Of a stretch of DNA of 64,000 bases, positions 57,970 through 63,495 are shown piece after piece (the stretch's first letter is position 1; each line of letters opens with the position of its first letter). The stretch is from sequence record LC494302.1; one strand, 5' to 3'. Both the position numbers and the translations under genes were made by a program. The notes below the pieces were generated by a model. The model made no database searches. It was not told where the DNA came from and saw only the letters and a program-made list of their open reading frames with translations. The stretch comes from Escherichia phage SP27.

Positions 57970-60900
57970 TTAAGCAGTACGTTGTGCAATAAACATATCT
58001 GTTACTGGACTCACACCGTCATAAATGACTTGGTAGATAGTTACAGAGTTTGCAGTTTTGTTCAGTGTGCCATCAACAACCGCATAAGTACCATCAGTAG
58101 TAAAGTTTCTATTACCTGTTGCATCTTGTTTCACATAAATGTATACTGAAGATGCTTTACCACCACCGATTAGACCAGTGATTGGTGCTAGAGTGGTATC
58201 TTGATCTAGAGTGATAAAGTATACGTTGCTAGTACCGTCTGGGGTCCAAGTACCAGTTGGTGCGATAACAGAAGAAGTTACTTGATTAGGAATAACATCA
58301 TATTTTTTAGTAGTTACTGTTGTTGTAGTTAGGTCAGCATTAGTAGTTGTCAATTGACCAGTTACAGTTACATCTTTATCAAATACTGCATTTTCTTTGA
58401 AAGAAGATGTTGCATTGACAGTTAATGTATCAGCAGCAGCGTCACCTAAAACAACACTACCATTTGCAGTCATTAAACCAGTAACAGTTAAAGTACCACC
58501 GATTGTTGCTGCTCCAGTAACAGATGCACTAGCAAGTGTTGCTGCACCAGAAGTAGTAATGGTAGTTACTGAAGTTGCTGCTAGGGTTGCAGTACCTGTT
58601 GCAGAAATATCACCACCAACAGTTAGGTTACCAGAAGTAATTCCAACGGTTCCAGTAATGTTAGCACCACTTGACATCGTTACTGCACCACCAAATGAAC
58701 CAGTAGTAGTTACTTCAAGGGTGTTCCCTTTTAGTAGACCAGTTGCAGTAATACTTGTACCTGCGGTAATACTAGTACCAGCAGCAACACTGTTGGTTGC
58801 AGTTAATGATTTAACAGCTACATCAGAGTTTGCTTGGTTTAGTGTTGCGTTTAGTAGACCAGTTACTGTAAAGTTACCGTTGTTAACTACGTTACCATTG
58901 ATTGTTAAGTTGTTGTTTTGTGAACCAACATCACCAATAGTTGCTGATTTGGAAATCAACTCTGCACCAGAAGTAATGTTACCCGCTGCACTAATAGTGT
59001 CAGCCGCAACAACTGCATAAGGTTCAATTGTTTGACCACTAACGTCAATATCAGCGTTGATACCACCATCTACACGCAAGGAGCCTGCAATGTAAGTATT
59101 AGGGAAAATCTGAACTGTCTCTGGTTGATCACCAATTTTAGTACCGATAATAACATCAGAACCAGTTTTAACTGCACCAGAGGTTGTTAGAGAACCTAAA
59201 GTTGTAGCACCAGTTACACCTAATGTTCCACCAATTGTTGCGTTATTGGTAACTGCTAATGCAGCACCTTCACCATTAAGAGCGATTGATGGAGCAGATA
59301 CTGCACCAGTTACGCCTAATGTGCCACCAATTGTTGCGTTGCCATCTGAATGTAGAGTTGTAGCTACAGAAAGACTGTTAGCAACTACATCAGTACTAGC
59401 TAAATCCAATGCACCTGGGGTTAATGTACCAGTAATGTTAACATTATTACCAAAGGTTGCTGCACCAGTCACATCTAGTGTAGTACTAAATGTACCAGAG
59501 GTTGCAGAGATTGCACCTGAATCTAGTGATCCAACAGTTGCTTTACCAGTTACACCTAAAGTTCCACCAACAGTTCCATTTGTGGTTACATCCAATGTAC
59601 CAGTACTTAGTTCTTGTGCGGTTACCTTACCGGATGCAGTAACAGTTGAAGTGGAAACGCCACCAGTTAGAGTACTAGCACCAGTAACACTTAATGTGGT
59701 TGCAGCAGTTACGCTATTTACGCTAAGATCAGCACCGGATAAGTCCAAACCACCTTCAGGAACAAATACACCCTTAACAGTTAGTTTTTGTACTGTACTA
59801 TCACCTGTTACATCCAAGGTAGAAGCAGTTAAACCACCATTCATACTTGCTGCACCAGTAACACCTAGTGTAGTGGTTACAGTAGCACTATTAAGTGTTG
59901 AACTACCAGAAATATTAGCACTAGGAGCAGTAATAGTTCCAGAATCAACTTGTATACCACCAGCAACAACCTGAATTCCACCAGCATTAACTGTTAGTTT
60001 ACCAGCAGTATTCAATGTATTTGAAACTGTTGTTGCACCAGTTAAAGTTGTAGTACCAGTTACACCTAAGTTACCAGAAATAGATGGACTACCTGTAATA
60101 TTACCAGTAGTTAGTATCAAATCAGTACCTACGGTAGTGGAGCCAGTACTTTCTAGTGTCACACCAACGATGTTTGCAGAACTTAGGTTAATAGTACCAT
60201 CAACAGTTAAGTTACCTTGAACGGTTGCATCACCTAGAGAAGTTAATGTCTTCACAGACACATCAGTTGTGCTAAGATCAATAACACCCGCAGTTAGTGT
60301 TCCAGATACTGCTAAATTACCAGTAATCGCGGTATTTTTAGTAATGGATACATTTTCTGCCGCTGAAGTAATAGAACCAACAGTAAGTACACCACCAACA
60401 GTTGCGTTATTAGTTACATTTAGAGCAGTTCCAACACCAGATAGTGTTGCTGACCCACCAGTAATTGCACCTGAGATTGAAGCTGTTGCTGCTGAAACAT
60501 CACCAGAAACTACTGCATTTGTTGCATTTAGAGCAGACACTGTAACTTCAGTACTTTGAACTTTAGGTAGAACGTTGATACCTTCTGCACTACTAACTGT
60601 AATAATACCAGTACTTGTTAGAGATTTAACAGATACATCAGCACCACTTAAATCAACTGTACCAGAAACAACAAGATCTCCACCAATATTTGCTCCAGCG
60701 GTAGTAGTAATGGATTTTGCACTTACATCAGTTGTGCTCAAATCAATTGCACCTGGTGTTACTGTACCAGAAACTGTTAGGTCACCAGTAATAGATGTAT
60801 TATTGGAAATAGATACACCATCAACGTTACTAATTGTTGGGGTTTCTACAGAAACTGCTTTAACTTTACCTGAAGAAGTTACGTCAGCTACGGTAGATGC

Positions 60901-63495: not shown

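Follow-up and report, generated by a model that had tools for sequence, protein, structure and literature searches.

A gene of 5526 nucleotides (nt) near the right-hand end of a 64,000-nucleotide stretch of Escherichia phage SP27 (LC494302.1; this whole stretch is called the window here) encodes a highly repetitive fibre protein of 1841 amino acids (aa). Orthologues of this gene in related jumbo phages differ in length by whole repeat modules and carry the signature of unequal crossing-over, and this polymorphism is our main new result. As an object the gene is ordinary and already known: GenBank entries label it as a tail fibre, and published work has identified the protein in virions. The overall best explanation, which we hold with moderate confidence, is that the protein is a long modular virion fibre used for the first capture of the host, probably by its flagella. 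The gene and its recognizable parts are as follows.

57970-63495, minus strand: fibre gene, ATG start, 1841 aa plus stop, taken from the list of open reading frames (ORFs); orthologue of 121Q gp571 and phAPEC6 gp256
63103-63495, minus strand: conserved N-terminal region, aa 1-131, beginning MYSIKTDL, a predicted anchor with a near-invariant start across the family
62524-63033, minus strand: family A unit 1, aa 155-324, 170 aa; the offset-170 diagonal scores 249
62014-62523, minus strand: family A unit 2, aa 325-494, 170 aa; lies in the region homologous to residues 205-445 of the phage phiTE fibre
60067-61761, minus strand: family B, four tandem units, aa 579-1143; offsets 145, 138 and 155 score 177-234
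61327-61761, minus strand: unit B1, aa 579-723, 145 aa
60913-61326, minus strand: unit B2, aa 724-861, 138 aa
60448-60912, minus strand: unit B3, aa 862-1016, 155 aa
60067-60447, minus strand: unit B4, aa 1017-1143, 127 aa
59233-59568, minus strand: 112-aa unit, aa 1310-1421, delimited by GGTLGVTG; copy number polymorphic among isolates
57973-58272, minus strand: C-terminal tip domain, aa 1742-1841, a predicted small beta-sandwich corresponding to PF26209 as precomputed for relatives

The repeats were recognized by scoring ungapped 60-aa diagonals of the protein against itself with BLOSUM62, and by comparing these scores with those from 10 shuffles of the protein. The top diagonals score 249, 234, 207, 202 and 177, while the shuffles reach a maximum of 64; the repeats are far beyond chance. 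Diagonal scoring was used instead of self-BLAST, which gave nothing usable in its plain form and many weak low-complexity matches when run in chunks with composition correction off. Tandem Repeats Finder reported no long array in the gene, because the divergence between units is too great for it and family A, with a period of 510 nt, lies beyond its 500-nt limit. The similarity within family A reaches beyond the two units, covering aa 132-518, and the 112-aa unit sits in a weakly periodic stretch (112-113 aa) at aa 1206-1460.

At the DNA level, the two A copies, spaced 510 nt apart, are 75-76% identical over their best stretches and 64% identical over the whole units. The B copies, with spacings of 414 and 465 nt, are 61-73% identical. 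Overall, then, the repeat copies share 61-76% identity, the longest exact repeat within the gene is 30 nt, and all others are no longer than 19 nt. The original prediction, made from the sequence alone, had described a repeat of about 160 aa in two copies and one of about 110 aa in four, both with near-identical DNA blocks. The two copies of the first repeat hold up, with a unit of 170 aa; the second does occur as four tandem copies, but these are 127-155 aa long, and the 112-aa unit belongs to a separate, third family. The DNA blocks themselves are clearly not near-identical.

The same prediction had suggested that such repeats are prone to recombinational length variation, and had called for a comparison of repeat number among isolates. 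Orthologues were taken from six other Asteriusvirus records, and the resulting lengths are 1652 aa in TH47, 1827 in UE-S1, 1834 in ph0011, 1841 in both the window and 121Q, 1959 in UB and 2129 in CRJP21; the JP4 fibre appears to match that of CRJP21. All of these proteins begin MYSIKTDL and finish FIAQRTA, and the large gaps in their alignment correspond to whole units of exactly 170 and 112 aa. The 112-aa unit is missing in TH47, present once in the window, 121Q, UE-S1 and ph0011, and present twice in UB, CRJP21 and PBECO4. In family A, whose unit occurs two or three times among the orthologues, CRJP21 has one additional block of exactly 170 aa. The suggestion is thus borne out by natural isolates that span 1652-2129 aa in whole-unit steps.

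The additional A unit of CRJP21 is a hybrid of the two units next to it: its beginning resembles that of unit 2 (VTGTATIPNIESTGTANFNN...), and its end is exactly that of unit 1 (...TPLLEVQKGKTKVADFE). This is the structure expected if unit 2 of one gene copy had undergone unequal crossing-over with unit 1 of another. In a phmmer search with the A unit, nearly all members of the family showed a pair of copies in this position, and the distantly related P0002, P0011 and P0012 showed three. By this distribution the A unit is ancient, and the presence of three copies in distant members implies that the expansion from two to three has recurred. Throughout, the last 140 aa remain 93-100% identical among isolates, and the shaft falls as low as 28-60% (TH47). 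We consider modular length change by unequal recombination, as read from these alignments, to be highly probable. It is plausible that fibre length tunes receptor reach, as had also been proposed.

The identity of the gene product is well supported. In a megablast search of a phage collection, positions 57970-63495 were fully covered (100%) in 11 records, at 99.1-99.5% nucleotide identity; at the amino acid level the identity is 99.6-99.8%. These records are differently named isolates (121Q is included twice) such as slurp01, SHEFM2K, 121Q, G17, phAPEC6, Sharanji and E9.1; all are jumbo coliphages of about 350 kb, and those whose taxonomy was read belong to the genus Asteriusvirus. By these matches the SP27 window belongs to an Asteriusvirus, a jumbo coliphage like 121Q, PBECO4 and phAPEC6. 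The genes for 121Q gp571 (AIT14461), phAPEC6 gp256 (QDF13883) and SHEFM2K M2K_0545 are the same gene as that of the window (99.4% nucleotide and 99.8% amino acid identity), with the same length of 1841 aa and the same neighbours; nothing material differs. Their GenBank labels conflict, reading 'long tail fiber proximal subunit' for 121Q gp571, 'tail fiber protein' for SHEFM2K, and 'hypothetical protein' in other cases. The protein matches PHROG 4549, 'tail fiber protein', with an E-value (E) of 7e-227, and scans against Pfam and NCBIfam returned zero families above threshold.

Direct evidence that the protein is part of the particle comes from published mass spectrometry (MS). The phAPEC6 gp256 protein was detected in virions by electrospray ionization tandem MS (180.38 kDa, 15 peptides, 15.9% coverage) and was listed as a tail fibre protein (PMC7247149), and the homologue from phage CBB, CBB_226, was found in virions by MS with a coverage of 6%. 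Given 99.8% amino acid identity to gp256, the SP27 protein is very probably a virion fibre, as the original prediction had it; as far as public data go, the possibility that it might be absent from virions is contradicted. The single minus-strand ORF of more than 5.5 kb is likewise confirmed, as is its richness in Thr (18.8%), Gly (12.1%), Ser (10.6%) and Asn (7.4%), with Val (10.2%) and Ala (9.9%) also high.

Two further points concern the gene in its surroundings. The gene had been described as antisense to the rest of the window. It does run opposite to nearly all of the upstream ORFs, since those of at least 150 aa in 1-55042 are all on the plus strand except one (43313-43813), but the minus-strand block already starts at 55077. 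The G+C content across the window is 31-41%. Megablast placed the gene at two sites per record, and tblastn found one site per record in the closest phages and no paralogue in the window; the second megablast sites are probably short repeat matches.

What might such a long repetitive protein look like? The two ends are the best-defined parts. At the N-terminus, the MYSIKTDL start is identical in 23 of the 26 retrieved proteins, and 25 of 150 columns are invariant; a profile of this region found no match among the PDB sequences. At the C-terminus, an AlphaFold2 (AF2) model based on a 17-sequence alignment shows aa 1742-1841 as a beta-sandwich, with predicted local distance difference test (pLDDT) values of 86-93. 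Foldseek found no significant match to this model in the PDB. The tip is widespread: its profile matched 236 cluster representatives of 1.84 billion at E<=1e-3, in proteins of 116-2120 aa where it almost always forms the extreme C-terminus, and the sampled partners fall in PHROG tail-fibre families. The domain occurs in 340 phage records, mostly in tail fibres of Vequintavirinae. A word-indexed search with the 125-aa tip alone retrieved one fragment only. In proteins P0031, P0054 and P0057 the domain occurs in 5-9 tandem copies, so it can also be used as an internal repeat.

The shaft is best discussed in terms of a probable trimer. The tip fold has 130 matches in BFVD, several of which cap collagen-triple-helix fibres, and this lends indirect support to a trimer. 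The AF2 monomer of aa 132-520, which contains the A units, reached a pLDDT of 45 and is uninformative, as would be expected for an obligate oligomer. Structure prediction, which had been proposed as a check, thus gave a model for the tip and none of use for the A units. A hydrophobic periodicity of 6 residues runs through the sequence, including the N-terminal region, and fits either a trimeric helix or a solenoid. We favour a homotrimeric fold in which the three chains intertwine to form a beta-helical shaft, and think its chances somewhat better than even.

Among proteins of solved structure the sole relative is the putative tail fibre protein of phage phiTE (793 aa; PDB 9CUY/9MJN chain g; K9L5R6), matched at E 4.6e-30. 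The two proteins share the tip (aa 1657-1838 versus 612-792) and the A-unit region (aa 380-606 versus 205-445), with domain E-values of 5e-13 and 5e-9, and K9L5R6 is also matched by the tip fold in BFVD (E 2e-8). Chain g is probably the long tail fibre of phiTE. That fibre is reported to be a trimer with a predicted length of 512 Å, whose shaft AlphaFold3 predicts to be an extended beta-helix; the experimental model covers only residues 14-171 (PMC11972413), and the homologous part therefore has no experimental structure. The differences between the two fibres are substantial. Relatives of the phiTE type start MSSNTDIIALL (as in P0024 and P0025) and carry PF26208, and the phiTE long tail fibre begins with an alpha-helical bundle that pairs with a sheath-initiator helix, whereas the N-terminus of the SP27 fibre is a beta-repeat beginning MYSIKTDL and does not align to phiTE residues 1-200. 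The phiTE protein is also less than half as long and lacks the B and 112-aa modules. Scaling from 793 aa predicted as 512 Å, which assumes the trimeric fold, gives 0.6-0.65 Å per residue. On this estimate the SP27 fibre would be about 110-120 nm long; a 170-aa unit would account for some 10-11 nm of this, and a 112-aa unit for about 7 nm.

The SP27 protein can be placed in a family of long fibres of the Rak2-like jumbo phages, of the 121Q gp571/CBB_226/GAP32 type. It has the MYSIKTDL start, the two A units and a tip ending VFIAQR, and lies upstream of a gene for a DUF4376 protein (homologue of 121Q gp570) and a gp569-like gene next to thymidylate synthase. Full-length homologues share 33-84% identity, range from 1175 to 2120 aa and lie on contigs of about 350 kb. 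The hosts of family members found by tblastn include Escherichia, Salmonella (phages Munch, 7t3 and SE_PL), Klebsiella aerogenes (fENko-Kae01), Pectobacterium (CBB), Cronobacter (GAP32), Serratia (BF), Erwinia, Yersinia and Xanthomonas, all with jumbo phages. The fENko-Kae01 (WNV47359), Munch and 7t3 fibres are end-to-end homologues, with 84-87% coverage and identities of 47% in the N-terminal anchor and about 42-43% in the tip, but their overall identity is about 37-40% and their module content differs. When the N-terminal 150 aa were used as the tblastn query, 60 phage records matched; nearly all of these are jumbo phages of the Rak2-like group, and the sole Klebsiella record among them is fENko-Kae01. 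RaK2 itself was present in the searched collection and gave no fibre match. Judged by these searches, homologues are found in every Rak2-like jumbo lineage except those infecting Klebsiella pneumoniae.

This distribution, together with the behaviour of the relatives, suggests a function. The architecture consists of the conserved N-terminus, a beta-repeat shaft of great length that is rich in Thr, Gly, Ser and Val and contains three module families (170, about 140 and 112 aa), and the 100-aa beta-sandwich tip that is common to many phage tail fibres. Modules are gained and lost between isolates with both ends constant, and a series of fibre lengths results. In the mechanism that we propose, the N-terminus would anchor the fibre to the virion. 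The distal end, probably with the co-inherited gp570, would make the first reversible contact with the host, and the most likely target for this contact would be the flagellar filament.

The case for the flagellum comes from several phages of the family. K. pneumoniae is non-motile; RaK2 has neither the fibre nor gp570, and the Klebsiella matches are limited to fENko-Kae01. That phage fails to adsorb to fliC, flgH, fliG and flhA mutants, and a single long tail fibre gene was found in its genome (PMC11218385); by tblastn this gene is a member of the present family. SHEFM2K, whose fibre is 99.8% identical to that of SP27, is called a 'flagellotrophic jumbophage' in the title of a report and in text that cites it (PMC11895373). 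A Salmonella mutant resistant to Munch, which bears a homologue, also resists a Chi-like flagellotropic phage (PMC8273493). The more distant phiTE is flagellotropic as well (PMC11972413).

Several considerations weigh against the explanation as a whole. The flagellum dependence of the relatives is shown or reported at the level of whole phages. The tip domain also occurs on the fibres of many Vequintavirinae, including phages that infect the non-flagellated K. pneumoniae and for which no use of flagella is known, and the tip itself is therefore not a flagellum-specific module. Finally, the repeats are 61-76% identical and share exact stretches of no more than 30 nt, and one would expect them to recombine only rarely. 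Taking both sides together, we regard the flagellum as a tentative target for the fibre, at somewhat less than an even chance.

Could the protein instead be a classical long tail fibre of the baseplate? Under this model, the N-termini of six trimers would hold them at the edge of the baseplate, and the C-terminal domain would bind lipopolysaccharide or an outer-membrane protein rather than flagella. The GenBank annotations do say tail fibre, and the surrounding genes encode tail and structural proteins, with those for a gp15-like tail completion protein and a colanic-acid-degrading protein close by. Tail fibres of Vequintavirinae, K. pneumoniae phages among them, typically carry this family of C-terminal domain, and images of phAPEC6 show particles whose baseplate fibres are in contact with a patch of membrane (PMC7247149). 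However, the baseplate fibres seen by transmission electron microscopy are short, at 28.6 nm in CBB (PMC5259590), described as 'short' in phAPEC6 (PMC7247149), and short also in fEgEco12; they are too short for an extended fibre of 1553-1841 aa. In addition, the tip is the most conserved part of the protein (93-100%, against 28-60% for the shaft), and tips that bind surface receptors usually show the opposite pattern. Nor is there similarity to T4 gp34 (E 1.8). We consider a baseplate fibre of this kind unlikely.

The comparison with T4 deserves a separate comment, considering that the 121Q label 'long tail fiber proximal subunit' implies a protein of the gp34 type. T4 gp34 is also a very long fibre protein, and the gene order here, with a large fibre gene, a small gene and a medium-sized gene, loosely resembles T4 genes 34-35-36-37. 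The best BLASTP match to gp34 has an E-value of 1.8, however, and no gp34 chain appeared in a phmmer search of the PDB at E<=1. The gp570 homologue showed nothing against T4 gp35, and the gp569 homologue has a weak, repeat-like match of 58 aa to T4 gp37 (E 0.004). The gp34-type label has no sequence support, lacking also the gp35 match, and should give way to a link with the phiTE-type fibre family.

Alternatively, the protein could form the hairs or whiskers of the 'hairy' jumbo phages, the long flexible filaments that ring the tail sheath of phAPEC6, 121Q, fEgEco12 and CBB and are also seen on their capsids. Both dedicated studies left the hairs without assigned genes (PMC5259590, PMC7247149). 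In CBB the hairs are 119 +/- 10 nm long, with tiny globules at their ends (PMC5259590); at the phiTE scaling, 1841 aa would come to about 119 nm, and a globular domain of 100 aa forms the C-terminal end of the protein. All four of these hairy phages carry a homologue, and RaK2, which is not reported to be hairy, has none. Moreover, no other long appendage is visible that could account for a virion fibre protein of 180 kDa. On the other hand, the CBB homologue itself is 1553 aa long and would give about 100 nm, not 119 nm. GAP32 has a homologue and no reported hairs, while the hairy phage Atu_ph07 has no homologue at E<=1e-10. It is also difficult to reconcile three sheath rings and a capsid, which need several attachment sites, with a protein that has one conserved N-terminus. 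The scaling depends both on the trimeric fold and on the 793-aa chain being the phiTE long tail fibre, and the MS coverage is modest (15.9% in phAPEC6 and 6% in CBB). An identity with the hairs thus seems doubtful to us. A combined version, in which the fibre, perhaps tipped by gp570, would be both the hair and the flagellum-catching organelle, its length changing in steps of about 7 or 10-11 nm as unequal recombination adds or removes 112-aa or 170-aa modules, is distinctly unlikely.

A single-chain beta-solenoid adhesin of bacterial type (autotransporter, YadA or bactofilin-like) is much harder to defend. Some homologues do bear the labels 'autotransporter', 'YadA domain protein' or 'beta strand repeat-containing protein', the hexad periodicity could be accommodated, and there is a match to Pfam bactofilin that stays below threshold (18 bits against a cut-off of 27.9). 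Yet no Pfam or NCBIfam family reaches threshold, and hence there is neither a YadA anchor nor an autotransporter beta-barrel domain; the N-terminus (MYSIKTDLDITG...), read by eye, has no hydrophobic segment resembling a signal peptide; and the protein is phage-encoded and present in virions. The fold match is limited to a stretch of moderate confidence, in a monomer model of a probable trimer. We judge this alternative improbable. The idea that the repeats or their copy number are assembly artefacts can be set aside as having next to no likelihood, because the copies are too diverged to collapse and are easily assembled, and 11 records agree on the same 5526-nt span; furthermore, the frame is intact and the computed mass of 180.41 kDa fits the 180.38 kDa listed for the MS-detected phAPEC6 protein.

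The long modular virion fibre that we favour does not occur in isolation, and its neighbours help to define the unit that is inherited. The features flanking the fibre gene in the window are as follows.

63634-64000, minus strand: 3' part of the gp572 homologue (298 aa in 121Q), running off the end of the window; PHROG 10468 and the 121Q annotation
63597-63625, minus strand: terminator-like hairpin separating gp572 from the fibre gene; it precedes an AT-rich leader with GGAGGG as the ribosome-binding site
57126-57905, minus strand: gp570 homologue, 259 aa, DUF4376 (Pfam, E 3e-8); PHROG 17968
57096-57119, minus strand: terminator-like hairpin after gp570
55077-57041, minus strand: gp569 homologue, 654 aa; PHROG 14293, with a short fibre-like beta-repeat stretch at aa 417-480

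The hairpins at 63597-63625 and 57096-57119 bracket the fibre gene and gp570 as a possible transcription unit. Matches to sigma-70 promoters were not enriched, with 27 found in comparison to 31.9 expected in shuffled sequence. Between gp569 and the convergent thymidylate synthase gene (54113-55042, plus strand) lies a strong hairpin with a 13-bp stem and a T run (55045-55074), which is placed so that it could terminate transcription of both genes.

The gp570 homologue lies directly downstream of the fibre gene in every record examined (CBB, Yersinia phage fHe-Yen9-04, Serratia phage BF and XaC1). It is absent from RaK2, and its distribution follows that of the fibre. Homologues of gp569 occur more widely, in 71 records that take in all the Rak2-like phages, RaK2 and K64-1 among them, and on this distribution gp569 is a core structural protein of the Rak2-like phages. 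Since the fibre and gp570 are absent from RaK2 and gp569 is present there, fibre plus gp570 would constitute a cassette between core structural genes. In CBB, the order is structural protein, fibre (CBB_226), DUF4376 protein (CBB_225), gp569-like protein (CBB_224) and thymidylate synthase, and the products of all five genes of the cluster are in virions, CBB_225 with a coverage of 68.5%. The CBB fibre differs from that of SP27 in its 35% identity, and its cluster lacks the colanic-acid-degrading gene.

The gp570 protein diverges faster than the fibre tip, with 79-81% versus 93-95% identity in TH47, UE-S1 and ph0011, and this would fit a more variable tip protein mounted on a conserved docking domain. 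Neither gp570 nor gp569 matched any PDB sequence. The original prediction had placed two more fibre-like genes at the flanks of the fibre gene, in the same orientation. The orientation is as described, with two genes downstream and a third upstream, and there are weak fibre-like signals; the description as fibre-like is only partly borne out, gp570 being a DUF4376 virion protein and gp569 a core structural protein that is also found in the fibre-less RaK2.

Some variation in this neighbourhood was seen along the way. In RaK2 (JQ513383, 29719-49248) the syntenic order is ORF062w, ORF061w (115 aa), ORF060w (the gp569 homologue) and td; the single 115-aa ORF061w takes the place of the colanic-acid-degrading gene, gp572, the fibre gene and gp570 between the gp574-like and gp569-like genes. 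A further gene, of 455 aa, separates the gp570 and gp569 homologues of UB and CRJP21 (locus positions 735-2102); it is absent from the window and 121Q. In phAPEC6 (MK817115, locus 3074-6000) there is no annotated coding sequence for gp570 or gp569, yet the DNA encodes a gp570 identical to that of the window. Just past the end of the window, two genes upstream of the fibre gene in Asteriusvirus, lies the gene for the 'colanic acid-degrading protein' (121Q gp573, locus 18577-20718). A gene of the gp573 type is called 'colanidase tailspike' in vB_Ec-M-J and is missing from the CBB cluster.

The fibre gene itself also varies in number and in the way it has been annotated. Phage vB_Ec-M-J (locus 12001-23037) has tandem paralogous fibres that share the N-terminal anchor, namely EcMJ_305 plus EcMJ_304, which look like one split gene, followed by EcMJ_303 (1988 aa). 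Two tandem paralogous fibres are found in BF17, WPEC3/5, Ecwhy_1, EC.P1 and Turkey5 as well. Within the SP27 fibre gene, plus-strand ORFs of 182-247 aa occur at 58397-59020, 59246-59974, 61556-62104 and 62822-63565; we suspect that these are by-products of the codon composition of the fibre. In PBECO4 (KC295538, 339191-348113) the fibre gene is unannotated, and three antisense 'hypothetical protein' ORFs that match those of the window are annotated there instead. The linear PBECO4 record opens inside the fibre gene: 1641 codons run off its end, and the C-terminal domain lies near its start (1282-1617), labelled 'YadA domain protein'. The 78% coverage of the gene in PBECO4 was at one point read as a swap of the C-terminal module; this idea was dropped, as the main cause is that the record was opened within the gene. 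About 620 nt at the end of that record have no megablast match.

The findings matter in several respects for the biology of these jumbo phages. The natural allelic series (1652, 1827-1841, 1959 and 2129 aa) provides a ready test of whether the length of the fibre or hair matters for adsorption, and a guide for the engineering of fibre length. The family occurs in phages for which a dependence on flagella has been demonstrated or reported and is absent from the K. pneumoniae jumbo phages, a distribution that nominates a candidate flagellum-binding gene. The same gene is a candidate for what the 'hairs' of these phages consist of.

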